Origin: an uncultured Nitrososphaeraceae archaeon
Lineage (GTDB): Archaea > Thermoproteota > Nitrososphaeria > Nitrososphaerales > Nitrososphaeraceae
DNA: 64,000 nt
Assembly (NCBI GenBank): GCA_963825865.1
Contig: CAWGVG010000027.1
Coordinates: 1 to 64,000 of the forward strand
Direction: 5' to 3'
The position numbers and the translations under genes are program-made. The notes under the pieces were generated by a model that saw nothing but the letters and a program-made list of their open reading frames with translations, was not told the DNA's origin and did no database searches. The first letter of the stretch is position 1. Every line of letters starts with the position of its first letter. Positions 40,279-63,138 of the stretch are shown here, one piece after another.

Positions 40279-40567
40279 AGAAATGACCAGTAAAGATATA
40301 GTAGAGATTGGTCTAGGTAGCATAGGCAAAGTCAAGATAATGAAAGCTTTAGCAGAAGAATGCAAGATGGTTACTGTCTATACACTTCATAAAAAAACTC
40401 GTCTGAAGAGAGAAGATATTAAACGCAATCTGGATGATCTAATAAAAATAGGCTGGGTAAGTGAGAGTAAGCTTGCTAATATGATGTACAGTATAAATAG
40501 AGAGAATGAATATGTAAATCACTTGACGGAATTTTTTGCTGATGTCGGATACATTGGTAAGTTATAA
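40265..40567 (+). CDS. Small winged-helix protein overlapping the cdc6 3' end
   Basis: GS.GKVKIMKAL...TVYTLHKKTRLKREDIKRNLDDL.KIGWV wHTH pattern. Confidence 0.7.
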   Translation: MITDREMTSKDIVEIGLGSIGKVKIMKALAEECKMVTVYTLHKKTRLKREDIKRNLDDLIKIGWVSESKLANMMYSINRENEYVNHLTEFFADVGYIGKL

Positions 40568-41437: not shown

Positions 41438-43094
41438 ATGCAGTTCAAGGCTAACATAGAACATAATAATAAACCAAAATTTATTTTTATCACAGGTGGT
41501 GTTATGTCGGGGCTCGGTAAAGGAGTAATAACTTCATCTACAGCTAAATTATTACAATTAGCAGGTCTGAAGGTTTCTTGTATTAAGATTGATCCTTATG
41601 TGAATTATGATGCTGGAACAATGAATCCTATTACACATGGCGAAGTTTTCGTGACTGATGATGGCGGTGAATGCGATATGGATATTGGAAATTATGAACG
41701 TTTTCTTGATATTGCCATGACAAAAGACCATAATATTACAACTGGAAGAGTGTATTCAGATGTAATTCATGCTGAGAGAGAAGGAAAATATCTTGGCCAA
41801 TGCGTTCAGATCATTCCACATGTTACAGATGCTATAAAAAATCGGTTACGAAAAATTGCCAATAGTGAGGTGTTAGATGTCATGGTTGTAGAATGCGGTG
41901 GTACTGTAGGTGATATAGAAAGTCTTCCATTCCTTGAAGCATTAAGGCAAATGGAACTTGAAGATGGCCGTTCTAATACATTGTTTATTCACGTTACCCT
42001 TGCACCTGTATTGGATGTCGTGGGTGAACAAAAGACAAAGCCAACCCAGCATAGCGTCCAAGAACTCAGGAGGATTGGAATTCAACCTGATATCTTAGCT
42101 GTTAGGTGCAAAACACCTCTTACTTCAGATGCTATGCATAAAATTTCACTATTTGCAAGTGTAGAAGAAAAATGTGTTATTTCATGTCACGATGCGCCTT
42201 CTATTTATAAGGTTCCAGAAGTTTTAGAAAGTCAAGGAATGCTCAAGGTTATTTCTGAAAATTTGTTATTAGAGAATTGTTCTCCACAATGGACTAATTG
42301 GAAATCAATCGCAAAATCGTTCTATGAGTATAATGGCCTAGTAAAAATTGCAGTAGTAGGAAAATATGTTACCCTTCCCGATAGTTATGTCAGTGTGTAT
42401 CATGCTCTTTCACATGCCGGTGCAAATATTGGGAAAAAAGTGGAAATTGAGTGGATTGATTCAGAAGAATTCGAGAAGAATGGAGGAGGAGCAAAGAATC
42501 TTGCCTTTCTTAGGAAATTTGACGGTGTATTGGCCCCTGGTGGATTTGGAAAAAGGGGAAGTGAGGGAATAATAAATGTAGCCAATTTCACCCGAGTAGA
42601 AAATATTCCATATTTAGGAATATGTTTTGGATTCCAGCTAGCGATTATAGCATTTGCCAGAGATAGTTGTAATCTAGCATGTGCCAGTTCTACTGAGCTT
42701 GATCCAAATACAAATGATCCTGTAGTAGTATTTATGCCTGAACAGAAAACAGCCCATGATATGGGTGGAACGATGCGGCTTGGTATGCACGAAATTACAA
42801 TTATTCCTAATACAAACGTCAGCAAAAGTATATGAGGGAATAAATGTAATGCATAGAAGACATAGGCACCGATATGAATTTAATCAGGACTATCGCAAGA
42901 TTATAGAAAAATATGGCATGGTTTTATCGGGTTATTCTGATAAAGGCAAGCGAATAGAAATGTTAGAGATTCAAAATCACAACTTCTACTTTGCCGTACA
43001 ATATCATTCTGAATTTAATAGTAGGCCGGGTAAACCGGAACAGGCATTTGATGCCTTTGTAAAGGCTGCTGCTAATTTGTCTTTTAAATCCTGA
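41438..43094 (+). CDS. pyrG: CTP synthase (+1 indel near 42819)
   Basis: [46 protein letters not shown] and QYHSEF. Confidence 0.96.
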
Positions 43095-44088
43095 GCTCAT
43101 AAATCTTCTGCCGTGAATCACGTAGAGATGTCTTCTTCTTTACATAGCCGCCGTTGAGCAAATGACTAAGTGATAGTCTCATAGTTCTCTCTGGAAGCAT
43201 CGTTCTTGAAGAAAGGTCTTTTTGACTCAATGCGCCTTCATACTCAAGCGTTTTCAAAATTAGTTTCGCACTTGGAGGCATGCTTAACAGATCCTTTGCC
43301 AGTTTCACTTTCTTTACAATGAGAGATGTAGCGGAAGAATCTCCTATTAATCTGACAAGCCTAGCAGGGAATTCATGTTTGTAGCATTCAAGTATTTTTT
43401 TTATTCCTAATCGAGATCCCCCATCAAGCACAACTTCACAGTGATATCTACTCATAATATCCGCAATTTCTATTATAGTCTCATTAGGAACTACCAAGGG
43501 GCGTCGAGTGTTATCAACAGAGTTCACCGATACTATGATGAATACATGGGATTTCTGTAAAACCATCGGACCACCTGCTGACATTGAATATGCAGTCGAT
43601 CCCGTAGGTGTAGATATTATAATTCCATCGCTGTTATCGTGCCATACGTCTTTGCCATCTATCCTAAGCATATGCTCCATCAGCATTGCACTTTTGCTTG
43701 GAAATACTGCAACATCATTTAGTACAGGCTCAACCTCTTTCCCGTCTACTTTAACTGCTAAACGAAATACCTCATCTACTTCGTAATCACTTTTCTTTAA
43801 TCTTGAAGTCACTGATTCCAAGTCTCTGACTTCTAGCTGAGCCAGGAATCCTGTGGAATCGGATTCATAAACGCCTAGAACAGGCGCAGAATCAGTTACA
43901 ACTTTATGAAAATAATCAAGAATACCTCTATCGCCACCAGCTACTAAAATTAGGTCGACTTCCTTTGCTAATTTATAATTACCATCCTTCATGACTTGTG
44001 TGTCAATGTTTAATGAATCTAATGTCTTTTTCATCTGGGATAGCAATGTTCCGTCCCTGTAATCTGCAGCGGATAGGGCTATTTTCAT
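43084..44088 (-). CDS. NAD(+) kinase with C-terminal MarR-like winged helix
   Basis: GGDRG, LNDVAV, DGIIISTPTGSTAYSMSAGGP and LDG. C-terminus PPSAKLILKTLEYEG.LSQKDL...LPERT.R....L. Confidence 0.88.
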   Translation of the reverse strand: MKIALSAADYRDGTLLSQMKKTLDSLNIDTQVMKDGNYKLAKEVDLILVAGGDRGILDYFHKVVTDSAPVLGVYESDSTGFLAQLEVRDLESVTSRLKKSDYEVDEVFRLAVKVDGKEVEPVLNDVAVFPSKSAMLMEHMLRIDGKDVWHDNSDGIIISTPTGSTAYSMSAGGPMVLQKSHVFIIVSVNSVDNTRRPLVVPNETIIEIADIMSRYHCEVVLDGGSRLGIKKILECYKHEFPARLVRLIGDSSATSLIVKKVKLAKDLLSMPPSAKLILKTLEYEGALSQKDLSSRTMLPERTMRLSLSHLLNGGYVKKKTSLRDSRQKIYELRI

Positions 44089-45486: not shown

Positions 45487-45774
45487 ATGCCAAAGAAACG
45501 GACTAGTAGAGGCCGGACTAAAGGTGGGAAGGGTAGTTCGGGCACGGTACATTGTAGCCAATGTGGTGCGATGGTGCCTCGTGACAAGGCCAAGAAGGTC
45601 ACAGGAAGGATCACTCTAGTCGAACCAACTCTTGCCAAGGAACTTAAAGCACAAGGAGCATACATAGCGCCGTCAACAGATGTAAAATTTTACTGTGTTT
45701 CATGTGCAGTGCACCGGGGCATAGTCAAAGTTAGATCAGAGTTAGAACGACGCATGACTGGTAGACTTAGATAA
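45487..45774 (+). CDS. rps26e: 30S ribosomal protein S26e
   Basis: MPKKRTSRGR.KGG, CSQCG..VPRDKAKK and YCVSCAVH. Confidence 0.96.
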   Translation: MPKKRTSRGRTKGGKGSSGTVHCSQCGAMVPRDKAKKVTGRITLVEPTLAKELKAQGAYIAPSTDVKFYCVSCAVHRGIVKVRSELERRMTGRLR

Positions 45775-46486
45775 TTTTACAACTCTTTGACGTCACAGCA
45801 ATTCGCTGAATAAGTGTCACGCCTGCTACTACTGACACTATTATCACTGCCAATTGCATAGATCCCATAATCGGGATCATTCCTATTGTTGCAATTATTA
45901 GTAGCCTTTCGGCTCGTTCTCCAATGCCGATACCCTTCAATTCAACACCAAGCGATTCTGCTCTTGATCTAGTATAACTCACCAGAAGAGATAATGATAG
46001 TGCAACCATACACCATATTGGATCAGCAAGGCTACCAAAAGCTATGCCTATGAATATGACAGTTTCGGATATTTTATCAAATGAGGAATCGAGAAATGCT
46101 CCTTTCTTGGAAGATTGTTTTGATGCCCTTGCAACATTTCCGTCAACCATGTCAAAAAATCCTGAAATTAAAAGAAGACTGCCGCCGACAATAGACACAT
46201 AAGGCCACGAGAAGCCGATTCTTGGCGCCGCTGTTGCGTATACAGCTCCAGCCATAATTGACATTGCTAAACCTACTGCTGTCAAAAAATTTGCCGTTAG
46301 GCCAAATGAGGCAAAAGTCATGCCAATCTTTGACATTATCGGTTGTAATGAGTCCCTAAATTTATTGAGCAACGATGATTCCAGCTTTATAATTGCATTG
46401 TATAATAAATTTGTTAGTTGCTTATAATATAGTATAGAAGTCTTACTTTTAAAATATAAAGAGTATGTAGTAGCTTGCAAAAACAT
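45767..46486 (-). CDS. CDP-alcohol phosphatidyltransferase (archaetidylinositol phosphate synthase-like); true start probably about 46370
   Basis: DMVDGNVAR......GAFLDSSFD, SYTRSRAE and ERAER. Confidence 0.9.
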   Translation of the reverse strand: MFLQATTYSLYFKSKTSILYYKQLTNLLYNAIIKLESSLLNKFRDSLQPIMSKIGMTFASFGLTANFLTAVGLAMSIMAGAVYATAAPRIGFSWPYVSIVGGSLLLISGFFDMVDGNVARASKQSSKKGAFLDSSFDKISETVIFIGIAFGSLADPIWCMVALSLSLLVSYTRSRAESLGVELKGIGIGERAERLLIIATIGMIPIMGSMQLAVIIVSVVAGVTLIQRIAVTSKSCKII

Positions 46487-46678: not shown

Positions 46679-47737
46679 TTGTTAGCGACGGAACAAAAAC
46701 AACGCAGACAGACACAATTCAATAAAGTTCTGATAGTTGGGCTTGGTCAATTAGGGCTTCCTGTAGCTAAATATGTAAAGGAGAGAGGATTTGATGATGT
46801 CTATGGATACGATATAAGCCCTGAAGCGATGGATCGTGCAGAAAAAACAGCAGGAATAAAGAAAGCTAATGATTTTAGTGATTTTGATGTTTATGTTTTA
46901 TGCGTCTCTACTCACAAATCTGACGATATATTCTCGCCACAGGTAGAAGGTCTATTATCTATAGTAGAGAGAATTTCAAAGGAAGCAAAGAGAAATGGAG
47001 CACTTCTATCAATAGAAAGTACCATTCCAAAGGGAACATCAAAGAAAGTGTTTGAAATACTCAATCACAGACTGCATGTAGCTCATGCGCCCCATAGATG
47101 GTATTCTTTAGAAGAAAAAGAGCATGGTGTAAATCAGCTACGCATTGTTGGTGGAGTTTCTAATTGTTGTCTTGAAGCAGCCATGCAGTTCTATAATGGA
47201 AAAAGCTCTTTTGAAAATATTGATAATGATGAAAATGTCAACAACAACAACAACAACAATTCGATCGATTCTACTACTACTACTACTACTACTAGCATGC
47301 CATCAAAAACAAGAAAAAGCCTAGGGATTCCTATGCATCCAGTTTCAGAAATAGAAATGGCTGAATTAGCAAAGATTGTTGAAAATGCTCATAGATATTT
47401 GCAAATTGCATTCGCTGAAGATCTTTACCTATACTGCCAAGCAAATAACATAAACTTTCCGGAATTGCGAGATGCTCTGAATACTAAATGGAATGTGCAC
47501 ATTTTAGAACCAAGAGAAGGGATTGGAGGACATTGTTTGCCAAAGGATACTAAAATGTTCTTGCAATCGTCTCAATCTATAAAAAGTAAAATATTGACAG
47601 CTGCCGTAGAAGTAGATGAGGAATATAGACAGTATATACAATCAAGACCAAGCAAATCGCTACTGTCATCATCTTCATCATCTTCATCCAAATTAACAAG
47701 AAGTAAAAGGGTTGGAAGGATACAGTACGCAAGCTAA
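46679..47737 (+). CDS. Nucleotide-sugar dehydrogenase lacking the C-terminal UDP-binding domain
   Basis: VGLGQLG, IEST, AELAKIVENAHR...IAFAE and GIGGHCLPKD; ends soon after the catalytic Cys. Confidence 0.82.
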   Translation: MLATEQKQRRQTQFNKVLIVGLGQLGLPVAKYVKERGFDDVYGYDISPEAMDRAEKTAGIKKANDFSDFDVYVLCVSTHKSDDIFSPQVEGLLSIVERISKEAKRNGALLSIESTIPKGTSKKVFEILNHRLHVAHAPHRWYSLEEKEHGVNQLRIVGGVSNCCLEAAMQFYNGKSSFENIDNDENVNNNNNNNSIDSTTTTTTTSMPSKTRKSLGIPMHPVSEIEMAELAKIVENAHRYLQIAFAEDLYLYCQANNINFPELRDALNTKWNVHILEPREGIGGHCLPKDTKMFLQSSQSIKSKILTAAVEVDEEYRQYIQSRPSKSLLSSSSSSSSKLTRSKRVGRIQYAS

Positions 47738-47838
47738 ACAATAATAATTGGTGGTGGAACGTCATCTTCATTCTAATTAAAAAGAAGTAAAAGGGTTGGA
47801 AGGATACATTACGCAAGCTAAACAATAATAATTGGTGG
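47678..47838. repeat. Tandem duplication, about 77-bp unit, period 84 bp
   Basis: ...AAGAAGTAAAAGGGTTGGAAGGATACA(G/T)TACGCAAGCTAAACAATAATAATTGGTGG occurs twice. Confidence 0.9.
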
Positions 47839-47853
47839 ATATATGAAAAAATT

Positions 47854-48489
47854 ATGCAAAAAAAACAATCACTGCTAGTTTTTGGTGCCCATCCTGACGA
47901 TATAGAAATAGGAATGGGAGGGACGGTAGCCAAACTTACCAGTATGGGTTACGATGTTAATCTAGCCATAGCTACTCTTCCAAATTTTGTGAAAATAGAT
48001 ACAAAGGAACAACGGCGAATGGAAGCAGTAATGTCTGCAAAAACCTTGGGATGTAAGCAACCAGAATTTCTAGATTTATCGCCAGATGAAATCACTTTTG
48101 GGAGGAAATTTGTTACCTTGATAGACGAAATTATCCATAGATATGAACCAGAAGCAGTTTTTACTCAATGGATAGGGGATTCACATCAGGACCATCAGGC
48201 GCTTACCAGAGCAGTAATATCAGCATCACGTGACCTGAATAACCTGTTTATGTATGAAACTACAATACCTGGTGGCGTGACTGAAAATGCCTTCAGACCT
48301 CAGCTTTATATTGACATCAGCGAAACTTTAGACATAAAAAGAAACGCGCTTGATTGCTTTGACTCACAAAAAATTCGCTGTGGAAATACTTGGATACCCT
48401 CAATACTTGGAAGATGCGCATTCAGAGGCTATCAAATGAATGCAAAATATGCTGAAGCATTTGAAGTGATCAAGGTTACCAAATGGTAG
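47854..48489 (+). CDS. PIG-L/LmbE family N-deacetylase (BshB-like)
   Basis: GAHPDDIEIGMGG, R..EA..SA..LG, DSHQDH, SQ and AEAF. Confidence 0.9.
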   Translation: MQKKQSLLVFGAHPDDIEIGMGGTVAKLTSMGYDVNLAIATLPNFVKIDTKEQRRMEAVMSAKTLGCKQPEFLDLSPDEITFGRKFVTLIDEIIHRYEPEAVFTQWIGDSHQDHQALTRAVISASRDLNNLFMYETTIPGGVTENAFRPQLYIDISETLDIKRNALDCFDSQKIRCGNTWIPSILGRCAFRGYQMNAKYAEAFEVIKVTKW

Positions 48490-49164
48490 TAAACCTTTCA
48501 TTTTTAATATAATTAAATTAAGGTAGTAGTAGGGGTTGTTGCCTAATTCGTTTTAATTGACTGTAAATATGATTTCACGGTTTTCGATTTAGCTTAGAAA
48601 GGGTATGCACCCTCTTATTGACTTGCAAGCACAAGAGGAAAGATGGTTACTGGTTGTGTTACCATCTAGCACATACCCTAGAACGAGATATGCTTATCGA
48701 AAATATAGTTTCTCTGGTCAAAGAAAATCCTCCTCCTACTTCAAAGAAGAACAGTAATAGAGGAAGGAAACCAATTCATTCTTGGGAAAAACTTGTCTGT
48801 ATTTGTATATTGATGGTTGTTTTCGGTTCAACGTACAGAGATATACAGAATATAGTACCCTCTCTTAATTTGCCATGGAATAACGAGCCATATCCAGATC
48901 ATACGTGGATATCACGTACATTCAAGAAGATACCGCTGATATATCTTGAACGTGTACTGAATATGGTCAGCTTATCTATGTTTGAAAGAATCAGGCTGGA
49001 AGAAGGGTATTCTCGCATCAGATAGCACCGGTGTAGAGACAAACAGGTACGGATACGAAGTACGATTTATCAAAAATAGTAGTAAGAAATTCGAAAAGAT
49101 AAGGGTAAAACAGTATCTGAAATGGCATATCACAGGGATACTTGATCATCTCATAATACTTAAT

Positions 49165-50193
49165 TGTTGTACTTACACAGATGGGTAACAATTTTGATTA
49201 CCTACATAGGTTACACTTTCTTGCTTCCTTTTTGTATATGTCTTAGATTTAATTAACCTTTGTACAAACCTTTCAGAAGGAGTAAGACCATTTATTCCAC
49301 CATGTTCCCTAGTTTCATTATATGCTTTGACAAACATATCATACCTTAGTTTTCCATCATCAATACTTGTTATTTCTTCAACTGTCAAGAACTCATTCTT
49401 TACAATCTTGTTATATGCTTCTATCTTTCCTTGTAACTGTGGATATGAATTTGGAATTGGTTTATCCTTTATGTTATTCTTATATAGAAAGTGTTTGAAT
49501 AGTTTAGATGTAAACTGCTTACCGTTGTCATGCATAACTTTCCTGGGCTTTCCGTTATCCATAATCCACTCCTCTAGTACATTCAAAACATCAATGCTCC
49601 TCTTTCTTTCAGACCACTTGCTAGCAACTTTTCTTGAACAGTCATCTATACAGCTTATCATGTAATTTCTTGTGCTAGAACAGCGTACGTAAAATGGTCC
49701 AAGTATATCCATTTGAAGCATGTCATTTGGATGTTTCATTGCAAATCGCTTATACTTTCTATTATTCTTTACCTTACAGTTTAGAACGTTGAGAGTATGT
49801 TTTTTCAATGTCTTGTATATGGTTCTACTGCTCAATGATACTCCAAGTCTTTTTAATCTGAACCTGATTCTACTAGTACCAAAGGTCTTTAATCTTAAAT
49901 CAAGTATTGTTTCTTCTATTTCTTTAGATACTTTGGTTTTGATGCTATGAGGCCTTCTAGATAGGTCTTTCAACCCGTCTATTCCGTGCTCTATGTATCT
50001 ATTTTTCCACTTGTAATATGTCTTCCTAGATATTTCGTATTTATTGCAAATATCGCTAATACTATTACCAGTCCATTCATGTTCATGAATGAGATTGAAT
50101 TTTGTTCTAATTTCTATAGAGATTTCCACTTCCTAGCAGAAGTGTTACCTATGTCTGTAAGCTATATTGTTACCTATGTTTGTAAGTACAACA
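49165..50193 (-). mobile_element. IS481-family insertion sequence
   Basis: TGT...ACA ends with 26-bp TIR (23/26 match). 6-bp TSD CTTAAT. Subterminal repeats of the TIR core. Confidence 0.93.
49173..50129 (-). CDS. IS481-family transposase (HTH + rve core), intact
   Basis: ISRKTYYKW..RY...G..GL.D.SRRP, QMD, IDDCSR, DNGKQF, PQLQGKIE and YN..R.H. Confidence 0.93.
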   Translation of the reverse strand: MEISIEIRTKFNLIHEHEWTGNSISDICNKYEISRKTYYKWKNRYIEHGIDGLKDLSRRPHSIKTKVSKEIEETILDLRLKTFGTSRIRFRLKRLGVSLSSRTIYKTLKKHTLNVLNCKVKNNRKYKRFAMKHPNDMLQMDILGPFYVRCSSTRNYMISCIDDCSRKVASKWSERKRSIDVLNVLEEWIMDNGKPRKVMHDNGKQFTSKLFKHFLYKNNIKDKPIPNSYPQLQGKIEAYNKIVKNEFLTVEEITSIDDGKLRYDMFVKAYNETREHGGINGLTPSERFVQRLIKSKTYTKRKQESVTYVGNQNCYPSV

Positions 50194-50896
50194 CTTAATA
50201 CACGACTTACCAGTAAGAAAACACACGATTCTCCAGTACTCCGAACAATGCTAAACAGATTGAATATAGATTAGACTTTGCAGGTTCAACATTCAATGGT
50301 GACAGAGGTTATGATGGCAACAAGAACTTCCAGTCAGTGTTTAACATGAACATGCTTCCAAATATCAAGCAGAGAAAAAACTCCAAGAACAAGAATAGCA
50401 GTAGTAAGAAGAACAAATACAGAAAGAAGGCTGCAAAGATATTCAATGCATCAATATATCGTTATAGAGGATTGATAGAAGGAATATTTGGAGCTGAAGA
50501 AACTAAACATCATCATCAGCTATACTGCACATTCAGATTAAAGAACAATCAGAAAAGATTTGGATTAATTAAATCAATAGGCTGGAACCTAGAAGTCCTT
50601 AACAGACTACAATGTGCAAACAAACTGGGAATAAAGGTGACACCATATGCGATATCAAATTAGGCAACAACCCCGGTAGTAGTAAGTATTAACACCAAAA
50701 AATAAATAAATATTAAGTCGTTTCATCAAACAAAACAAAGAGCTGATTATATTATAATATTAATCGTACCTTTTCCATCATATTTAGATATTTTATTCGG
50801 TCAGTGCTCAGATGAGAATGAATATTTCTGTTAATATCTACTTATACAGAAAGCAAGACTTAATTATTATGAATTCTCACTCATCTAATAATAGTT

Positions 50897-51984
50897 TTAA
50901 AAATAATTTAACGTGAATGAATCGTTATTGTTTTCCACTTTTCCATTATTGGAAGTCTTTTCATATGTAGGATATTGAACGTAAACCTCATCCCAATATC
51001 TCATACATATTAACCTCTGATATTTTTTGATTTTTTCGATACCTTCATTCAAAACGGCATTACGAAATACAATATCTGGTTCATTTATTCCTGCTCGCAG
51101 AACGCATGGGACAGGTTGCAGAAAACCGTGGATTAATTTCAAATATTTTTAGTTCATTCCCTTCAAGTTTTGCTTGGATATTAATAGCTCCTCTAGCTCC
51201 AAATTTTAAAGCAACTTCTTCGGCTGACCTTCGTATACTTTCAAAATCATCGATAAAGGCTTTGTAAGTTTGTCCATTTTTTATTATCTTACGAATTGAT
51301 ATTGAAGACATTATATATTTTCCAAATCTATCAACTGTAACACCAGAGGTAAACTCGGTATCATTGTCCTTTAAGTATTCTTGAAGAAGAGGATGCCATC
51401 CTACTTTTTGAATCTTAGAAATTGCATATTCCATTTCGTCTCTATTGTTTACTACATAAAAATGCAGTGAACCATATCCTTCCCTGGGCTTTACGACTAA
51501 GGGAAAACCAAATTCCTGGATGAATTTTTTATTACCTTCAGGTAAAGAGGATGCGGCGCTACTTAGATTATTTGTATTTAAGAATTCAAAGGTCTTCCAT
51601 TTGTCTTTCGCTGTAATCATTACTTCTATTGGGTTTGTCAATACAATTGCATCAGTTTCACATTCGATTCGTTCTTTTGCATTACCAATTGTGAGCAATT
51701 CCTGATCGGAGCCTACATAAATTGCATGAATATTTTGCTCTTTGCTAACTTTGATGATGGAATTAATATAGTTTGGCGAAGAAGGTGATGGTACTAAAAT
51801 ACCACTATCGCATCTGTATAGACCAGCGGCCTGAGCACTCATATCAGTTGCAATAATTCTATATTTTACTGGGGAATTATTTGATACATTTGCTAGTTTC
51901 AAGGATTTGATAATTCCCTGTGCTACTATGCCTCCTGCTCGCAGTTACTAGCACATTTGCATTAGTAGTTTTTCCTAGATCCAT
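50897..51984 (-). CDS. ATP-grasp ligase (CarB/PylC-like small type), two indels
   Basis: VLVT(A)AGG, DKWKT, KPREGYGS, QEYL and FEINPRFS. Confidence 0.85.
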
Positions 51985-52038
51985 AACTTTCTTGGTTTAT
52001 TGTTTGGTAGCATATACTTAACATATACTACTCATGAT

Positions 52039-53777
52039 TCAATTTTCCATTTTTGTGGCCATAAGAATTGGTGCAGTCAAGTTGTTATTATTTAACAAAT
52101 TTTGACGCCACTGTATTTCTGTGTTCGCCATTCCAAAGTTAACGGCATAATCTATGAAACAAGGTCTCATGTATGCGATATTTTTAACTTTATCTGCTAC
52201 TTTGATAAGTCGACGTGTCTTTCGTTGCTCTTCTTTAAGATTGAACAAATCTGAAAGAAGAGGCTGAACAGGTTCACCAACATTTATTCGCCGCATTCTT
52301 TCTTTTATAAGAGGTATTATTTTATACCTATATTTAGCATCGGTTTGCTTTAATTGTTCTATATATGCCATGATATCCGATTGCTTTGTTAGCTGTACAA
52401 GTTCCAGAGCCTCAGATTGTCCAAGGCCATAATAAATATCCGTAGAAGGCCAGACTATAGTTAGTGGCATGTTAATCGATAATTCTCTAAAGGCTGTACC
52501 TTGCAACTACCGTATAGCCCATACTGCCACCAATGCCAGATGCATAGCATTCAACTCCCAGGTCTCTAGAAAGCAACAATAGTATTGGAATTGCTCTAGG
52601 GGAAAGAGCATGAATAACATCTTCATTTGAGAGATCTAACTTATGGTTGTGATTCTCAAGCTTTATATGAAGATACTTTTTGCAGGACATACAAGTGCCT
52701 TCAAGTATTGTTTCTTGCTGTAGATTCTCATGAATCTTTGCATGAGCCTTGCTACCACATTTGCAATGGAGCCACATTGGGGCATTTAGATATGAACTTG
52801 AGCTTACACCAGTATCTATACCATGAGCTAAAAACATATTTTTGGTTTTTCTTAACACATCTGAATATGTGCTAAAATTAGAAATTAAATACTTGAAACC
52901 ATCTTCAAAAACTGAGGGTATGTCAGTGAGCCTTACAAACAAAGTATTATAACCCCATATTTTATTTACCAACTGTGACATCAAAAAAGAATTAAAATCT
53001 GAATAAGATTCTGCCCTTGAATATGAAATCTCTACTTCATGCCAGAACTCATCAAAATTATGAAGCACCCGAGATTTATTATCCGAGGTAGATGAACTTA
53101 AGGAATTTTTTCTTATCCATGAATTTATCTGTTTTCTCCAGTAGTCTAAAATTGTTCGTCCTGGTACAGGCATATTGCATATCATCTTCCATCTTATAGA
53201 ATTACTTACTGGCAATCTGAGTTCAAGTATCCCCAATGAATGTCTGATGCTTGGTAGCTGTGCAAGGCGAATCCAACCCTCATCCATAAAATCATGGTCT
53301 ACGATAAGGAATAAATTGATGATTTTTTTATTGGGGTCGTGTTTTTCCATCATGTGTTTGAGAGTCTCAAGCAAGACGATCTTTTTGAATACACCGCTAT
53401 ATGCGAAAAGGTTGGGTTGATGTATCGAGACGAGAATTTTCGTTGTTGGAAGATTTAATAATTTAATACTGCTACTGACACCACTAGTCATTGTGTTTGC
53501 TTCCAAATGGAATTTGTCAATGAATTTCTGTAATTTGAGTCTATTATTCAAAATAACATAATCCATTGGACGAGCTGCCTGTTGCTCTATTGCTTGAAGA
53601 GGCAAATGACGACGACATCTTATTAACAGCGTCTGAGAAATGATTTGGTATTGATGATATGAAATCTGAGATTATAGGGTTGTTAATACTTTCATATTGT
53701 GCAAATAATGACCTTACACTTCTAGGAAGTTGATCTATTGCAGTATAATAAGCCTGATCGGCAGAATTTATCTCCAT
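52039..53777 (-). CDS. BshC-like HUP-fold ligase of about 580 aa with a Cys4 zinc ribbon, two indels
   Basis: SIHQPNLFAYSGVFKK, FLIVDHDF and LSPRA...YASGIGGSMGY parallel BshC motifs; also HCKCG...CMSC. Confidence 0.62.
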
Positions 53778-54161
53778 GATTTACAACTCCTAAACATATT
53801 GCACAAACTAGGGGTATTAGTATAACAATCCACAATATATTACTACTTATTATTATATTAACATGCTAATAAGAAGTTACTAACTTTTTATAATAATTCG
53901 TTATTATCAGAATGTGACTAAGTGATCTATACTTAACCTTAATCAGAAGAATTGCCACAATAGGATGAGGAAATAAAATAATATAGAATAAGGGAAAAAT
54001 AATATATTAAAAGTCTACAATTATGCATTTTTTATGAAACTTGTATTATAGTTCACAAAATCTTTCGTTTGATTTTCCGTAATCGGCGATTATGGTTTCT
54101 ATGCCCTTGCAGGACCGATTTTCTTAGGCGATATAATCGTCTTTTAATTATATGGTCTAAG

Positions 54162-54275
54162 TGGATTAATTAAATCAATAGGCTGGAACCTAGAAGTCCT
54201 TAACAGACTACAATGTGCAAACAAACTGGGAATAAAGGTGACACCATATGCGATATCAAATTAGGCAACAACCCC
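54162..54275 (+). mobile_element. Solo right-end fragment of the 48532-50674 IS
   Basis: 114 bp identical to 50561-50674, ending in the TIR AATTAGGCAACAACCCC. Confidence 0.92.
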
Positions 54276-54545
54276 TGTCTATGTCTTCATTATGTCTTAT
54301 TTTTTATACTGACTGTTAGGTTCTGCTCCCGATGATTATTTGGCTTAATTGCATTGTTTTATTAAACCTCTCTAACATATCCTCAGTATTTGATTCCTAA
54401 AATAGATAATGATATTTTTGTTTAATATGCAAAAATTATAATTTGACATTTTAAAGATTATTATTTGTTAATAGCAGTGAAGTATAGACCAGTTAACAAA
54501 TCATGATCACTTAACTTGTCCTAATATTAAAAATATATTGATATA

Positions 54546-55307
54546 GTGATAAAACTATCCGTAGTCCTGACATTTTATATAACGGTTAAGTTTCTGTCTA
54601 CGACTACACACATGAAAAGGAAAAAAAGATCTCGAAGTATAAAAGATAAGGATATAAACGTAAATAAAGATTATAGTAATAGCAATAAACATGTTATGAA
54701 CGGTACCACTAGTAAAATATCTTCTTTATTGCAAAAACCGATAACAAAAATAGAAGATGAAGGAAAGACCGTTACAGAAGTTTTTGACACCTCAATGTCA
54801 AGGTATGAAGCAATAACAGAAATGAAAGAATCAATAGCAACATCAACAAGTATTCAAGAAATAGATAAAAATAAAAATAAAACACTCTCTAATACTCAAA
54901 AGGAAGGACTGATAAACCCTGAAATGGTATTAGGTATCACTCCTTCGAATAATAATAATAATGACAATGTGTATACTAATTTTCCAACTGCACCTCCTGC
55001 GATAATAGAAGAACCAACCTCCGATATTACCAAACCAAAACAAGCAAAAGGAGAGAGAGAATTAGAAACTCAGGCATACAAAAAAATAAAAAATCAAGAG
55101 GATCATAGAAATGAGAATTTGAGCAATCCTGATTCATATATGAATGGTATGGATTTGTGGCAACGTACTGCATTAACCTGGATTAATGCGTACAATGAAT
55201 TTGTTAGAAATGCTGAAAGAATGAATGAATATTGGTTTAACCTCTTGGGCAGACCTTGGATAAGAGAACAAAAAAATGCTAGTAGCAAGAAAATAAGGGC
55301 AGAATAA
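54546..55307 (+). CDS. Hypothetical low-complexity protein with C-terminal amphipathic helix
   Basis: Disordered N-terminal part; MDLWQRTALTWINAYNEFVRNAERMNEYWFNLL. Confidence 0.55.
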   Translation: MIKLSVVLTFYITVKFLSTTTHMKRKKRSRSIKDKDINVNKDYSNSNKHVMNGTTSKISSLLQKPITKIEDEGKTVTEVFDTSMSRYEAITEMKESIATSTSIQEIDKNKNKTLSNTQKEGLINPEMVLGITPSNNNNNDNVYTNFPTAPPAIIEEPTSDITKPKQAKGERELETQAYKKIKNQEDHRNENLSNPDSYMNGMDLWQRTALTWINAYNEFVRNAERMNEYWFNLLGRPWIREQKNASSKKIRAE

Positions 55308-55762
55308 TGTTGAAAAAAATTTAGGCTTAAGAAGGTAATGACAACCACTGTTATAGTATTTATTTTCTTATATATTCGAAGTAGTGCGAATTATAATCTC
55401 ATTATTTCCGAATATATTAATAAGAACGAATAGCGTAAATATGGAGCATAACATATGATGATGACTATTATGATCCTTGAATCAAATGTCATCTACTTGA
55501 AAAGTCCAATTTTCTACTTGGAGGTTCTTTGCAGTTTTTTGATTGTTCCACAACAAGAGACAAATAAAAAAAGAGAGGAGATCAGAGAACAAGATGAATG
55601 CGAAGAATAAAACTAAGAAGGAAAAGAAACGTAGATGGGATGCAATCCTGATAGGAATTGGAATGGTAATAGGTTTCTCTATCATAATTATGAAGATTAC
55701 TGGTTATTGGCCTTGTCATATCGTGAGCGCTCTGCAAATCAAGCAAATATCTTGTAACAAGT

Positions 55763-56776
55763 CTATACAAGAAAATGTGTCTTCGATATTACATTGGATT
55801 CAGCAACAGCAGATGAAATTCTTTCCTCATTTCTTATTATAATTTCTTCAAAGTATCTAATTACAGTAATCTCTGAAACCTTAGGTAATAGGATTTCTTT
55901 TCCATATGTCATATCCAGTATCATTGCAGGAAAGTTGGCTCCCGCCAAAGTTGTAAATATTGTCCCTCCCCCAAACCGTGGATTAATTTCTATTAGCTTT
56001 ATTACGCCGTCTGAAGACTCTTTCATTTGAATACAGCAGGGACCTCTAATTCCAACATGTTCTGCAATTTTCATACAATTCATTTCCAAATCTGGATCTC
56101 GTATGATTCTTCCTTTTGTGGAAATACCTGCTTTTGTTTGTATTCTGATTCTAGGTACTGCAATTAATGGTTTTTTGTTCAAATCAGAAAGCACATCTAT
56201 GGTATATTCCTTTCCGGGGAGAAATTCTTGAAAAATCATGTTATCAAACTTTGACACTATGTATTTGAGTTCGGATTCATCTTCAATTTTGATAACGTCA
56301 CGACTTCCCTTTCCAAACTGTGGTTTTGAAATAACTGGGAATGCTTTTATCTTTTCCGGATCTGCCGTTGTAAAGGGAAGTTCAAATTTATTTTTGGAAA
56401 GATTTTGATATGTTAACGTTTTATCGCGACAAATTTCTAATGTACTTCTATCGCTTACAATCGCCTGAGCTCCCATCTCTGCAAGCTTGTCACGGTTTTC
56501 ACTATATGGGTAAATATCAAAACCTGATGTTGGCATTAAAACTTTAACCTTGTGCATCTTTACAATTTCAAAGAGCTTATCAACAAAAGAGTGATGAATA
56601 GCCTCAGGAATCACTTCGCTAGCGTCAGCCATGAAGAAACCTGCAGATAAAGGACTAGAGTCAGTAGCTACAATTTTTCCGTCAAAGTTTGCCATCTTCA
56701 ATGATTTTATAACGTTTATTCCTGCAGGACCAGAAGCGCCAGGAATAAGGACTGTCGATAACATAGCTCTACGCAA
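55763..56776 (-). CDS. ATP-grasp ligase (second paralog)
   Basis: VLIPGASGPAG, CRDK, KPQFGKGSR, QEFLPGKEYTID and IEINPRFGGG. Confidence 0.9.
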   Translation of the reverse strand: MRRAMLSTVLIPGASGPAGINVIKSLKMANFDGKIVATDSSPLSAGFFMADASEVIPEAIHHSFVDKLFEIVKMHKVKVLMPTSGFDIYPYSENRDKLAEMGAQAIVSDRSTLEICRDKTLTYQNLSKNKFELPFTTADPEKIKAFPVISKPQFGKGSRDVIKIEDESELKYIVSKFDNMIFQEFLPGKEYTIDVLSDLNKKPLIAVPRIRIQTKAGISTKGRIIRDPDLEMNCMKIAEHVGIRGPCCIQMKESSDGVIKLIEINPRFGGGTIFTTLAGANFPAMILDMTYGKEILLPKVSEITVIRYFEEIIIRNEERISSAVAESNVISKTHFLV

Positions 56777-56874
56777 AGGGCATGACCATTTCTTATTAGA
56801 TTAATAATAATATAAACATTCATGAAATATCGAGTGAAATTTTTAATAATAAAAAGTTCTTATTAATATATAAA

Positions 56875-57501
56875 TTGAATATTAAGGAAGATTATCACGT
56901 GCATTGCAATTACAATGATCATTCCGCACATGATCTTACTATCGAGAATGTGTTAATACGCTCCGAAGAAATTGGTTTACAAACTTTGGCTTTTACTGAA
57001 CATGTTAGAAAAACTTCAGATTGGATCCCCGCCTATCTTAGAGAAATAGAATCATATGGGAACAAAAATAATTCTCGTCTGAGAATTATTCCAGGATTTG
57101 AGGCAAAGATCCTAGTAGATGGTTCTATTAATTGTCCTGAACAATATAGTAAAAATTACTTTTTGATAGCAAGTTTTCATAATTTATATGGTTGCAAGCA
57201 AGTTTGGATTAATGCGCTAAAAAAAGCGATCGAAAATCCAGATGTAAATGTGATAGGCCATATAGCACCAGAACCGACATTCACACTTGGGGATAGTGAA
57301 GTTGATGCATTGGCTTCTCTAATTGTAAAAAACAAAAAAATAGTCGAGCTTAATGCAAAGTACTGTAGACCTCCGCCAGAGTGGATACTTATTTTCAAGA
57401 AAAAGGGAGTAAAATTTCATTTGGGTAGTGATGCACACTCCTTGCAGCAAATAGGCCAATTTGAAAAAATTTCAGATCTGATTTCCCTGGCCGATGGTTG
57501 A
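56875..57501 (+). CDS. PHP-domain hydrolase/phosphatase
   Basis: DYHVHCNYNDH, FTEH, GFE, ASFH, IGH, ELN and GSDAH. Confidence 0.9.
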   Translation: MNIKEDYHVHCNYNDHSAHDLTIENVLIRSEEIGLQTLAFTEHVRKTSDWIPAYLREIESYGNKNNSRLRIIPGFEAKILVDGSINCPEQYSKNYFLIASFHNLYGCKQVWINALKKAIENPDVNVIGHIAPEPTFTLGDSEVDALASLIVKNKKIVELNAKYCRPPPEWILIFKKKGVKFHLGSDAHSLQQIGQFEKISDLISLADG

Positions 57502-57624
57502 GAAGTATATGTAACAAGAACCCCAGACCTTAAAAATTAAAGTATGTCATGCAGCAATTACTTTCAAAAGTCATTCCGGTACCCTATGCTGATATTTTTA
57601 CCAAGAAAGGGCTTGCGATCCCTA

Positions 57625-58642
57625 TTAATCACATTTCTTCTTACCAAATATTGTTCCTGCCTGAATTATAGAATTACTGGGAACTTGTCTTCCTGGCAGA
57701 GTTATTACAGAAGCACCGATTGCGCAATTATTACCAACTACGGCACCAAAGTGATTTGTACCTGTATCAACAAGTCGACCATTTAGCTCATACCTTATGT
57801 TTTGCTGGTTTAACAACACATTTGCAGTTCCCGAATATCCTCCAAACCAGACATGTTGTCCTATTATGCTATCAAGTATTACATTTTGATGCGCCATTTT
57901 ATCACAGCCTGCAAAATATGATCTAGCGATTTCGCAATTAAATCCGATTCTTGTTTTCTCGCCTAGCATGCAATTTCTAATAAGCGAACTCATGCCAATA
58001 AAGCTGCCTTTGCCAATGTATGTAGGTCCTTTTATCTTGCAAAAGTCATCAATTGTAACTCCATCTTCAATTATACATGGTCCTTCAATTATGCTTGATT
58101 TAGCAATTGATGCGTTTGGGGAAATCCTTGTTTCTCTTATATTCTCATAAAGTACTTTTTGGATAATTTTTAAAAAATCCCAGGGATAGACAACAGAATC
58201 TATTAGAAAAGATGCTCTTTCTAACGAATAATGAATAAATGTGTTTAAAGGAACTTCAAACTTACCTTCTTTATTGAGTGTTCTGACTTCATTGCTATTT
58301 ATCAGATAGTCATGAGAAGCAGTCATAGTAGCGGTAGCAATAGCAGCAATTGAGAGCTTGTCTTTATTGCCATTATTGTTATTATTATTAATAGAAGAAG
58401 AACAAGAAGAAGAAGATTGCTCTACATCAATAGAAGGAAAGTTTTCTTCAATTAGTTTAACTGCATCAGGAGATTCGTTTGGTACTATGATCTTGTCAAT
58501 ATCTAGAATTTCCTTTGCTACCCGCACATTTCTGACAATTAGTGGCTGTCCAAATACTTTTAGTGAAGTTGCAGGGCAATCACTACAGTCTGTCATAAGG
58601 GATTGAAGGTGATGGATTGAGTTACGAAAGACCAGCTCGCAT
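57625..58642 (-). CDS. GlmU-like protein: degenerate nucleotidyltransferase N-terminus plus left-handed beta-helix acyltransferase domain
   Basis: LKVFGQPL remnant, YPWDFL, hexapeptide repeats, LDSIIG and FGAVVG. Likely ATG at 58642 with one indel. Confidence 0.8.
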
Positions 58643-59451: not shown

Positions 59452-60123
59452 TTGTTAGGATCAATGAAAAATAGCAATAAAACTACGGTTTTAACAATGG
59501 TAGTATCGTTACTAGTCGCTTTTGTGCTAGTAATGAGTGGACCTGAAGGGAGTATGATGATAAACAGCAATTATGTCTATGCCAAATCATCAGGAGGAGG
59601 CGGCGGAGGATCAAGTGGTGGAGGCGGCGGTGGAGGTAGCAGCGGTGGCGGTAGTAGCGGTGGCAGTAAAGGTGGCGGTAGTAGCGGAGATTCAAAAAGT
59701 TCTGGTTCTGATTCTGGCGGTAGCAGTAAAAAAAGCATAGGTAATAATGGCGATGATCTAAACGACGATGACCACGGTCCACCATCAGCACCAGGCAATG
59801 ATTTACCAGGAAACGATAGAACAAAAAATTCAGATCCGATAATCAAGACTCTAGGAAATCCATGTCATCCAGTCAACAGATGCACACCAAAAACAGATCA
59901 TTTCCCCCGTTTCCATGACCATGACCATCATGATCACGGCGATGTAAGAGTAATACAAAAGACCGTAGTAGTTCATGACAGAGATAACAACCAACAAACA
60001 ATACTGTTAAACACCAATACACAAACAGGCACTTGTTTTGTATCTTCACAGGAAGTGGTAAATGTGCCAGACTTAGTTACACAATTGCTAAACCAATGCA
60101 CTTCTGTAACTATAACGCCTTAA
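59452..60123 (+). CDS. Secreted Gly/Ser-rich, His/Asp-tract protein
   Basis: Signal-like hydrophobic segment ending VYA, (G)nSS linkers, HDHDHHDH and four Cys. Confidence 0.7.
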   Translation: MLGSMKNSNKTTVLTMVVSLLVAFVLVMSGPEGSMMINSNYVYAKSSGGGGGGSSGGGGGGGSSGGGSSGGSKGGGSSGDSKSSGSDSGGSSKKSIGNNGDDLNDDDHGPPSAPGNDLPGNDRTKNSDPIIKTLGNPCHPVNRCTPKTDHFPRFHDHDHHDHGDVRVIQKTVVVHDRDNNQQTILLNTNTQTGTCFVSSQEVVNVPDLVTQLLNQCTSVTITP

Positions 60124-62092: not shown

Positions 62093-63138
62093 AGATCTCT
62101 TGCGTAATTAGGAGCTATAGTCTAACACCCTACTTGTTTTAGCCGTCTTCTTAGATTGAAATGCTGTCAGACTGTATAACTCTGAAGTTCAGGAGACCGG
62201 ATATTATATCAGATACGTTATTGTACTTCCTTAATCTGTTTCTAAATTTAGTACCCATTATTCCAAACTTTTTGATTCTACATATGGTATGTTCTACTAT
62301 GATCCTTAGCCTAGAATGATTCTTGTTGTAAGTTCTTTCATCACATGAAAGCAATGTACCCTTTTTCTTTTTGATACGAAGTACAGACTTTACAGTGGGA
62401 AAGTCCTTTTCAATGCCAAGATAACCAAGATCAACTATGTTTTCAACTTGTGATGGAGTTATAGAATGATTGTGTTTGTAAATGTCATAATCATGTTTTC
62501 TTCCACTTCTGTGACCTGTCTTATGCAGTATCAATCCTTCACTGTTTACCATCAATTGTGTCTTGACAGTATGTTTCTTCTTTCTACCTGAATAGTAACT
62601 CTTCCTTCTTCTTTTGTTCTTAGGTCTTGGAATTTCTTGTTCTGTAGAGTCTATGAAAGCCTTGAATCCAGGAAAGTACTCTTCTACTTCATCTATAGTT
62701 CTTAATCTCCTAGTACGTTTGTATATCTTCTTTGGCAATGGAATACACTCCTTGATAAGTGGTTCCATCATTGATATATCTCTACAAACATTGCTTTGAT
62801 CAAGGTCAAACAGAAATCCTGATAATGTATATGTAATGTATAATCTGTAGTATACTAGAAGCATAACGAATCTTTCTTTAACTTTAAGCTTAAATGGTCT
62901 ACCAGCACCTATATCCCGTATTCTCGTCCTTGATAGAAGACGTCTTCTTTCGTGCTCTTCGTAGTTATGTTCAATTTCGTTACAAATGGATTCAAATTCA
63001 GATACAGTTACTCCGGTAAATGACCTGAATATCAAAGGTTTCTTACATAATTTGCTATAGGACATCAAAGAGCTTGTCAGATAGATATCCTATGTGAAGA
63101 GGAATATAGCTCTAAGCTTCTAATTACACAAGAGATCT
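62093..63138 (-). mobile_element. IS5-family (ISL2/HARBI1-like) insertion sequence
   Basis: 24-bp TIR AGATCTCTTG(C/T)GTAATTAG(G/A)AGCT and 3-bp TSD ATA. Confidence 0.9.
62151..63068 (-). CDS. DDE_Tnp_4-type transposase, intact
   Basis: FRSFTG, GAGRPFKL, IDSTEQ, YYSGRKKKHTVK, HD, DLGY.G and R..VEH.I. Confidence 0.92.
   Translation of the reverse strand: MMSYSKLCKKPLIFRSFTGVTVSEFESICNEIEHNYEEHERRRLLSRTRIRDIGAGRPFKLKVKERFVMLLVYYRLYITYTLSGFLFDLDQSNVCRDISMMEPLIKECIPLPKKIYKRTRRLRTIDEVEEYFPGFKAFIDSTEQEIPRPKNKRRRKSYYSGRKKKHTVKTQLMVNSEGLILHKTGHRSGRKHDYDIYKHNHSITPSQVENIVDLGYLGIEKDFPTVKSVLRIKKKKGTLLSCDERTYNKNHSRLRIIVEHTICRIKKFGIMGTKFRNRLRKYNNVSDIISGLLNFRVIQSDSISI

Follow-up and report, generated by a model that had tools for sequence, protein, structure and literature searches.

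A modular gene cluster of Nitrososphaeraceae that combines a BshC-fold ligase with a PIG-L-family deacetylase and ATP-grasp ligases, with a possible role in surface glycoconjugate modification

We examined a 64,000-nucleotide stretch of DNA from an uncultured Nitrososphaeraceae archaeon (positions 1 to 64,000 of contig CAWGVG010000027.1, assembly GCA_963825865.1; referred to here as the window). The region between 45.7 and 58.6 kb, with a G+C content of 30 to 41%, holds genes for a dehydrogenase (DH), a PIG-L-family de-N-acetylase (PIG-L), a ligase resembling the bacillithiol biosynthesis protein BshC, two ATP-grasp ligases (AG1 and AG2), and a PHP phosphoesterase (PHP). These six enzymes are the set that is conserved in relatives of the source organism. 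The initial annotation of this DNA had listed seven enzyme-like open reading frames (ORFs) here, and all seven were recovered at their positions. The features of the region, including insertion sequence (IS) elements, are as follows.

45767 to 46486, minus strand: CDP-alcohol phosphatidyltransferase resembling archaetidylinositol-phosphate (AIP) synthase (PF01066, 58.1 bits; NF040950, 165.4 bits against a cutoff of 180)
46679 to 47737, plus strand: two-domain dehydrogenase (DH) of the UDP-glucose/GDP-mannose dehydrogenase family (PF03721 and PF00984)
47854 to 48489, plus strand: PIG-L/LmbE-family de-N-acetylase, nearest to BshB1 (PF02585, 76.6 bits; TIGR04001, 108.8 bits against 182.5)
48532 to 50674, no strand assigned: IS5-like element with a nested IS481-like element (inverted repeats; NF033577, 222.2 bits; matches to IS5 fragments)
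about 50897 to 51996, minus strand: ATP-grasp ligase 1 (AG1), PRK12767 type, frameshifted (NF009402, 228.8 bits for the fragment)
52039 to 53780, minus strand: BshC-like ligase in three frames (fold of the orthologue in genome G001; no Pfam or NCBIfam match for the window pieces)
54546 to 55307, plus strand: hypothetical ORF of low complexity (no family match)
55763 to 56776, minus strand: ATP-grasp ligase 2 (AG2) (PF15632, 87.2 bits; PF02655, 69.5 bits; NF009402, 207.1 bits against 218)
56875 to 57501, plus strand: PHP phosphoesterase of the HisJ/YcdX-like group (PF02811, 30.0 bits against 26.4; NF006251, 74.4 bits; TIGR01856, 39.2 bits)
57625 to 58596, minus strand: hexapeptide-repeat protein with a left-handed beta-helix (LbH) (TIGR03992, 112.6 bits against 292.1, in the LbH region only)

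The window gene for the BshC-like ligase was assigned to BshC because its intact orthologue in the related genome G001 matches PF10079 (35.3 bits against a cutoff of 27) and has the fold of Bacillus subtilis BshC (PDB entry 4wbd) in a predicted structure. Two paralogues, at loci L013 and L018, score 25.8 and 22.1 bits on PF10079. A protein with exactly the sequence of the G001 orthologue is listed at NCBI as bacillithiol biosynthesis protein BshC, from Candidatus Nitrosocosmicus franklandus. An AlphaFold2 model of the G001 orthologue, built from a 10-sequence alignment (pLDDT 89.4, pTM 0.88), had 4wbd as its best Foldseek match over the whole length (E of 6.1e-16, TM of 0.61/0.62, 594 aligned columns, 13% identity), followed by class I lysyl-tRNA synthetase. 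The architecture comprises a class I aminoacyl-tRNA-synthetase-like Rossmann core, a four-cysteine ribbon, and a C-terminal coiled coil, and at the level of the model the BshC fold is confirmed for the G001 orthologue. An HQPNLF motif and the four cysteines (CxC...CxxC), which are located on two beta-hairpins, are invariant across the family; the cysteines may form a zinc ribbon. Sequence searches against PDB chains returned nothing for the window fragment and nothing for the G001 orthologue at E values up to 1, and the 10-sequence profile yielded only three chance-level rows at E values up to 10.

On TIGR03998, the equivalog model for BshC with a cutoff of 265.8, the G001 orthologue scores 30.6 and two paralogues score 15.8 each, and no match was found in the source genome at an E value of ≤0.01. 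When a profile was run against 1.84 billion representative proteins, 570 matched at E values of ≤0.001 and 189 at ≤1e-30; the named matches include a YllA/UPF0747-labeled protein and a Promethearchaeota protein. Of the 24 genomes examined from the same family, 18 have an intact frame of 550 to 620 amino acids (aa) that matches the window fragments, as does 1 of 16 from other families of the order. As judged from these comparisons, the BshC-like proteins are a modest family that is distinct from mainstream BshC. The database label of bacillithiol biosynthesis is probably too specific in these archaea.

In this assembly, the AG1 and BshC-like genes each need two frame changes to match their orthologues. 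The stretch from 50800 to 53900 is present in sequencing runs of 12 studies, and contigs from three DNA runs of three studies and from one RNA library were compared with it at >99% identity. Every contig that covers positions 51096 and 51940 in AG1, or 52499 and 53578 in the BshC-like gene, is one base shorter there, and the single contig that extends across the whole stretch differs from the window by 11 substitutions and the four 1-base gaps. Deletion of the four extra bases by script produced open frames of 365 codons for AG1 and 579 codons for the BshC-like gene. Both genes were treated as intact in nature because the contigs from other soil samples lack the extra bases, and the alternative that they are real pseudogenes was rejected. 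Two of the four extra bases fall within the 10-mer CTGCTCGCAG, whose only two copies in the window are at 51091 to 51100 and 51935 to 51944 (0.04 expected by chance). This resembles an error of assembly or base calling that depends on sequence context and may involve a modified motif. Contigs from the RNA library (X15) cover part of the BshC-like gene; none covers 50800 to 52047, which includes AG1, and this carries no information on expression. The source genome is 81.8% complete. Upstream, the CTP synthase gene (pyrG, 41438 to 43094) is split into two frames near 42802 to 42846, and there are other overlapping ORF pairs on the same strand at 11263 to 13091, 24422 to 25800, 32819 to 34127, and 39100 to 40567. 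These pairs suggest further single-base errors. Pseudogene calls from this assembly need checking, since the frameshifts are not common to the same population elsewhere.

Each of the six core enzymes is a predicted soluble protein. The dehydrogenase lacks the C-terminal UDP-binding domain PF03720 and scores 134.5 on TIGR03026 against a cutoff of 189.8. Nine members of its family are 313 to 381 aa long and end just past the central domain, and the alignment of the G001 orthologue with Cap5O stops at residue 302 of 431. The stretch GIGGHCLPKD, which contains the catalytic cysteine motif GGxCxxKD, is invariant in all nine aligned sequences and aligns with Cap5O; its cysteine is presumably the nucleophile. 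The family is multicopy, with five loci in the source genome, one of which is 97% identical. That paralogue (G000:C26:123447-127628, locus L113) adjoins the ergothioneine genes, which encode EgtB and an EgtD that is split into two frames. The window contains a second dehydrogenase of the UDPG_MGDP_dh family at 32819 to 34127 (N-terminal domain, 114 bits) that is apparently split into two frames.

PIG-L scores 76.6 bits on PF02585 against a gathering score of 28.2, and its best NCBIfam match is BshB1, at a score below the equivalog cutoff. AG1 matches PF02655 at 44.2 bits, and its G001 orthologue reaches 318.1 on NF009402 against a cutoff of 218. The nearest solved ATP-grasp relatives are the uncharacterized structural-genomics protein 2pn1, which AG2 matches at an E value of 6.5e-24, and the L-amino-acid ligase 3vot, which it matches at 2.3e-5. 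AG2 is divergently paired with PHP, the G001 orthologue of which matches PF02811 at 33.3 bits. A housekeeping role for PHP as histidinol phosphatase is unlikely; none of the 16 genomes from other families has an orthologue. The seventh enzyme of the initial annotation, described as GlmU-like, had to be given up. Only its C-terminal left-handed beta-helix matches (residues 135 to 316 against TIGR03992 positions 214 to 392), no domain of the NTP-transferase type was detected in the ORF (TIGR01173, 27.1 against 366.85), and the LbH protein, present in none of the 80 related loci described below, was dropped from the cluster.

A scan of species-representative genomes found 130 relatives, of which the best 80 loci were retained. 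Almost all of these are titled Nitrososphaerales (three have Nitrosopumilus-type titles and two have Thermoproteota titles); 75 are of the main type and 5 are of a second type described below. Among the main-type loci that are long enough to show the neighbor in question, 64 of 68 have AG1 adjoining the BshC-like gene, and PHP (56 of 65), AG2 (52 of 57), a GT2 glycosyltransferase (29 of 52), PIG-L (16 of 29), and DH (12 of 21) are near it. The recurring order in the 80 loci is GT2, AG2, PHP, BshC-like gene, AG1, PIG-L, and DH. G001 has a compact, intact arrangement of CTP synthase, NAD-kinase-like gene, PfkB, AIP-synthase-like gene, DH, PIG-L, AG1, BshC-like gene, PHP, AG2, and GT2. The set has been kept despite rearrangement, as exemplified by inverted blocks at L079, L088, and L099 and a different order at L019. 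Related genomes are not independent, and such counts overstate independence. Six of the seven genes that the initial annotation had grouped do stay together in relatives, and no characterized pathway matched the cluster gene for gene.

Whole-genome searches of the 24 family genomes showed that AG1 and the BshC-like gene share their distribution: 18 genomes have orthologues of both, and the other six (G004, G007, G011, G012, G020, and G024) yielded neither. AG2 has orthologues in 21 of the genomes, PHP in 20, and PIG-L, at an identity of at least 60%, in 18. Three genomes with completeness of 75 to 87% (G007, G011, and G024) have no BshC-like gene, AG1, AG2, PHP, or PIG-L. It is this distribution pattern that defines the units of the cluster, which are the BshC-like gene with AG1, AG2 with PHP, PIG-L with or without DH, and a glycosyltransferase. 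Outside the family, a genome from another family of the order (G027, C10:74418-75476) has an AG1 orthologue with 68% identity together with PIG-L paralogues; a BshC-like gene was not found there with the window query, which makes this genome an exception to the pairing of the two genes AG1 and BshC-like. A gene for a MurI-type glutamate racemase is present elsewhere in the source genome (G000:C57:20768-21499, locus L117; 166.8 against a curated cutoff of 146.65). It has matches in 21 of the 24 family genomes and in 3 of the 16 from other families; the two g12 genus genomes, from which the cluster is likewise missing, gave no match. It is possible that this racemase supplies D-glutamate to the ligases.

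The glycosyltransferases associated with the cluster suggest, by their sequence families, that it acts on a polymer. The GT2 beside AG2 in G001 (PF00535, 102.2 bits) has QQIRW at residue 372, a match to the QxxRW signature, and transmembrane-like segments at residues 20 to 69 and 430 to 448. Its top NCBIfam matches, both under the cutoffs, are PgaC/IcaA (124.4 against 422.3) and NodC (102 against 550). In G013, the GT2 is located between the BshC-like gene and AG2, a position that is occupied in the window by an AT-rich 2-kb spacer. The second type of cluster, which is Pel-like and is carried by some Nitrososphaeraceae at L013, L016, L060, L074, L080, L081, and L085, has the order metallophosphoesterase, AG1 paralogue, a membrane protein of nine or more transmembrane segments, NAD-epimerase, PelF, TPR-like protein, PIG-L paralogue, and BshC-like paralogue (10814 to 18519 in L013). 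The PelF of these clusters scores 156.8 bits against a cutoff of 100; this PelF-like GT4 also scores, below the respective cutoffs, on MshA (95.3) and BshA (89.3). PelF was not found in the source genome. G014 has two paralogous clusters.

A scan of metagenome contigs with an alignment of distant members found 119 relatives, from which 80 loci were retained. The distant-branch proteins are only 21 to 25% identical to the Nitrososphaeraceae BshC-like proteins, and in the ESM Atlas the branch is mainly archaeal, with Methanobacteriota most often represented among the few members of known phylum. The typical order is a PF00953 (MraY/WecA/AglH-family) transferase, a DUF1616 membrane protein, the BshC-like gene, PIG-L, DUF354, a soluble protein of ~540 aa and unknown function, one to three FemAB-like genes, and often an ATP-grasp gene, as at L137 (6480 to 16292) and about 30 further metagenome loci. 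PIG-L is beside the BshC-like gene in 50 of the 52 loci that are long enough to show it; on the same basis, the frequencies are 42 of 67 for DUF1616, 34 of 41 for DUF354, 27 of 34 for the ~540-aa protein, 25 of 32 for FemAB-like genes, 17 of 43 for the PF00953 transferase, and 9 of 26 for ATP-grasp genes. Pfam annotation covered 67 of 90 ORFs and seven of the eight long loci (L139 and some short ORFs were excluded). Single loci also carry genes for an exosortase-like protein, a CE4 deacetylase, a full-length UDP-sugar dehydrogenase, an asparagine-synthase-like protein, or further GT1 and GT2 enzymes. The ~540-aa protein (unk544) was considered as a second BshC-like protein and rejected (BLASTP E value of 0.45), and PDB searches with unk544 and DUF354 returned nothing informative. 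From its gene families, the distant cluster looks like a lipid-linked glycopeptide pathway; no description of it was found in the literature searched. Because the distant branch repeats it, the pairing of BshC-like and PIG-L genes is old, and in this second lineage it again occurs among membrane-glycan and peptide-bond-forming enzymes.

Several other features adjoin or interrupt the cluster in the window. The initial annotation was correct that mobile DNA interrupts the cluster; its plural "elements" resolves to a single IS5-like element, located between PIG-L and AG1, with an IS481-like element (49160 to 50198; transposase at 49173 to 50129, minus strand) nested inside it. The inverted repeats are 17 nucleotides with 100% complementarity for the IS5-like element and 59 nucleotides with 83% for the IS481-like element. 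Both families are multicopy in the source genome, with 43 tblastn matches for the IS481-like transposase and 14 to 23 for the IS5-like fragments. A DDE_Tnp_4 transposase at 62151 to 63068 has 106 tblastn matches in the 4.98-Mb genome, which is unusually IS rich for its family. The low-complexity ORF at 54546 to 55307 is located in the AT-rich 2-kb spacer (G+C fraction of ~0.30), has a relative in 1 of the 80 loci, and is probably outside the pathway. The AIP-synthase-like gene is single copy in the source genome, abuts DH in the window, and adjoins the cluster in 10 of the 80 related loci as well as in L014 and, rearranged, in L022; it is a neighbor whose membership in the cluster is uncertain. 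The NAD-kinase-like protein encoded at 43084 to 44088 has an additional C-terminal winged-helix-like region (weak MarR_2 and Rpc34 matches), and in G001, too, its gene neighbors PfkB and the AIP-synthase-like gene. For an ORF at 59452 to 60123, whose product combines a hydrophobic N terminus with long runs of Gly/Ser and a stretch rich in His/Asp, there was no family match; it has 12 tblastn matches in the genome.

We consider it somewhat probable that this lineage-wide, modular cluster of the Nitrososphaeraceae serves to aminoacylate and amidate hexosamine or uronate units in a glycoconjugate of the cell surface. In this pathway, a membrane glycosyltransferase (the PgaC/NodC-like GT2 or PelF) would lay down N-acetylhexosamine (HexNAc) as a chain or as a lipid-linked glycan. 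Cytoplasmic PIG-L would strip the N-acetyl group and free the amine, to which the BshC-fold ligase would join an amino acid that AG1 might then extend or cap. Separately, DH may turn a C6 alcohol into a uronate, acting on a substrate other than a nucleotide sugar, AG2 would amidate a carboxylate with a phosphorylated amine, and PHP would then remove the phosphate. The HisJ-like affinities of PHP would presumably fit an amino-alcohol phosphate. The initial annotation had proposed deacetylation followed by aminoacylation up to three times. The order of events fits the enzyme families, and the BshC fold is confirmed as stated above; the number of aminoacylations was conjecture, and one of the ATP-grasp enzymes more likely amidates a carboxylate. 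Among the products that it had offered, a modified surface glycan is favored by the polymer-type GT2 and PelF transferases and by the presence of the distant branch in lipid-linked glycan clusters.

Several observations weigh against this interpretation. All of its chemical steps are drawn from protein families and gene neighborhoods, and the gene order may partly reflect shared descent. For PIG-L, DH, and GT2, adjacency holds in only about half of the sufficiently long loci, and the homologues of GT2 in the source genome lie away from the locus, on contigs C23 and C55. Three genomes that are 96 to 98% complete (G004, G020, and G012) have AG2, PHP, and PIG-L, but a BshC-like gene and AG1 were not found in them. 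DH was found in 21 of the 24 genomes, including G007, G011, and G024, which lack the other modules, but not in G003, G014, or G018. The ligases are all predicted to be cytoplasmic, whereas synthase-type GT2 enzymes extrude polymer. To our knowledge, the ligase activity of Bacillus BshC has never been reconstituted in vitro.

Comparison with known systems provides partial precedents for a pathway that decorates a surface glycoconjugate. Bacillithiol synthesis, which relies on BshA, BshB, and BshC, offers the pairing of a BshB1-type PIG-L with a BshC-fold protein and the implied logic of freeing an amine and then adding an amino acid. In contrast, the protein studied here has just 13% identity to 4wbd and a score far under the BshC equivalog cutoff, and its gene is paired with an ATP-grasp gene (AG1 in 64 of 68 loci) among polymer-type or lipid-linked glycosyltransferases. 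Nod factor synthesis by NodC, NodB, and NodA and the production of poly-N-acetylglucosamine (PNAG) and Pel similarly combine a processive HexNAc transferase (QxxRW GT2 or PelF) with de-N-acetylation, and Nod factor synthesis goes on to reacylate the freed amine in the cytoplasm. However, the deacetylase of the cluster is PIG-L (CE14) rather than CE4, its GT2 is far under the PgaC and NodC cutoffs, and reacylation would employ ATP-dependent ligases and amino acids rather than NodA and a fatty acid.

The AG2 and PHP step was modeled on the demonstrated chemistry of Cj1438C and Cj1435 of Campylobacter jejuni. According to the available part of the source, an ATP-grasp enzyme (the C-terminal part of Cj1438) of the HS:2 capsule amidates a uronate on the growing glycan with an amine phosphate, and the phosphatase Cj1435 then dephosphorylates the product (PMC11800379). 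The combination of dehydrogenase, ATP-grasp enzyme, and phosphatase is the same in the cluster. The dehydrogenase of the capsule system, which we take to be Cj1441, is the counterpart for comparison, and the cluster DH differs in lacking a UDP-binding domain. Furthermore, Cj1438C is a TupA-like ATP-grasp enzyme, whereas those of the cluster are of the PRK12767/PylC-N type, and the phosphatase is a PHP protein where Cj1435 is presumably a HAD enzyme. Murein and pseudomurein synthesis have a parallel in the distant branch, in which BshC-like and PIG-L genes accompany a PF00953 transferase, FemAB-like genes, and ATP-grasp genes, and AG1 and AG2 weakly match a "pseudomurein ATP-grasp" model (~1e-12 to 1e-16). 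Unlike in those systems, no Mur-ligase family was present in the seven Pfam-annotated distant loci, the Nitrososphaeraceae clusters lack PF00953 and FemAB, and no cross-linking enzyme was identified.

The pathway might instead produce a soluble thiol that resembles bacillithiol or mycothiol. An N-acetylglucosamine (GlcNAc) glycoside formed by a glycosyltransferase would be dephosphorylated by PHP (as in the unidentified MshA2 step) and deacetylated by PIG-L, the BshC-like ligase would add Cys, and an ATP-grasp enzyme would cap the Cys amine. The BshB1 match of PIG-L, the BshC fold and the NCBI name of the G001 protein, the MshA and BshA scores of the PelF-like GT4, and the adjoining inositol-lipid and PfkB genes would all suit such a product, and a review notes, in the part available, that BshA and BshC homologues occur in archaea (PMC7278568). 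However, the TIGR03998 score of 30.6 is far from 265.8. The initial annotation had remarked that no BshA is encoded in the window, which is correct, and a search of the source genome, which is incomplete as stated above, found none above the cutoff (best score, 70.8 against 273.7). YtxJ, BrxA/B (PF06491), and above-cutoff YpdA were each found in none of five genomes, two of which are single contigs with 99% completeness. As transferases, the clusters have either a transmembrane GT2 with QxxRW or PelF accompanied by a multipass membrane protein; the distant branch has MraY/AglH-family and FemAB-like neighbors; and the two paralogous clusters of G014 suit surface diversity better than a redox cofactor. 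The source genome has EgtB and EgtD, and the available part of PMC7554672 proposes ergothioneine as the low-molecular-weight thiol route of these archaea. Canonical bacillithiol is thus rejected on the TIGR03998 score and on the lack of above-cutoff BshA, Brx, YtxJ, and YpdA in the genomes searched, and the new low-molecular-weight thiol contemplated in the initial annotation is unsupported and the weakest of its three proposals; we judge a thiol of any such kind to be unlikely.

Modification of an inositol phospholipid head group, in a manner similar to glycosylphosphatidylinositol synthesis, is about equally improbable. AIP synthase, dephosphorylation by PHP, GlcNAc transfer, and PIG-L would yield a glucosamine-inositol lipid, the amine of which the ligases would acylate. 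The abutting AIP-synthase-like gene, the membership of PIG-L in the GlcNAc-phosphatidylinositol de-N-acetylase family, the nearby PfkB kinase gene, and the lipid-phosphate HexNAc-1-P transferase family with which the distant cluster begins are in keeping with this possibility. Glucosaminyl archaetidylinositol is known in methanogens. Nevertheless, the AIP-synthase-like gene, being single copy, is probably a housekeeping gene and is adjacent in a minority of loci, the GT2 has the processive QxxRW signature, and the main-type cluster is without a PIG-A-type GT4. There may also be no single pathway, only two-gene modules with separate roles that are together mainly by shared descent. The modules are apart in G004, G020, and G012 (in G012, AG2 and PHP are ~100 kb from PIG-L), the distribution of DH is decoupled from that of the other modules, and the closest relative, G010, divides the genes between two contigs, one with AG1 and the BshC-like gene and the other with AG2, PHP, PIG-L, and DH. 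This explanation also appears improbable, as the set outlasts the rearrangements at L079, L088, L099, and L019, and in the two paralogous clusters and the distant branch different members make up the same combination of PIG-L, a BshC-like protein, an enzyme that forms peptide bonds, and a membrane glycosyltransferase. A cytoplasmic compatible solute in the form of an aminoacylated glycoside would agree with the predicted solubility of the six core enzymes, and small glycosides are common solutes in archaea. However, the polymer-type membrane transferases, the lipid-linked contexts, and the lack of visible osmoregulation genes in the neighborhood make it very unlikely.

No publication that treats the cluster was found in the literature searched, with most subscription journals outside the search. 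The main text of PMC11559005 does not contain "thiol," "Bsh," "ATP-grasp," or "deacetylase"; the available part of its core-gene spreadsheet lists, without comment, the AIP-synthase-like gene, one ATP-grasp gene, and the GT2 of the locus. The cluster genes are not treated in the available part of a paper on mer genes. As far as the available text of PMC11559005 describes it, Nitrosocosmicus is without an S-layer and is enclosed by a wall ~18 nm in thickness, and an amino-sugar glycocalyx has been proposed for it. A decorated amino-sugar polymer fits this picture of the wall, but the cluster also occurs outside that genus.

A more far-reaching and doubtful possibility is that Nitrososphaeraceae and the separate archaeal branch build a previously unrecognized peptide-bearing amino-sugar polymer, a GT2- or PelF-made chain of poly-HexNAc or HexNAc-uronate whose de-N-acetylated amines and uronate carboxyls carry amino acids or short peptides. 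If this were the case, BshC-fold and ATP-grasp ligases would install the peptides in one lineage and FemAB-like enzymes would do so on an MraY/AglH-type lipid carrier in the other, and D-glutamate from the MurI-type racemase could be a building block. The polymer could be the thick-wall material of the S-layer-less Nitrosocosmicus, and "BshC" would become the prototype of a broader family of hexosamine N-aminoacyl ligases.

For surface glycoconjugate modification as we favor it, the chemical prediction is an N-aminoacyl hexosamine and an amidated hexosaminuronate. The results also reframe BshC, as its fold is found in archaea, constantly with PIG-L, in a glycan context without the remaining bacillithiol system. 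The cluster offers six or seven candidate genes for the envelope chemistry of soil ammonia oxidizers.

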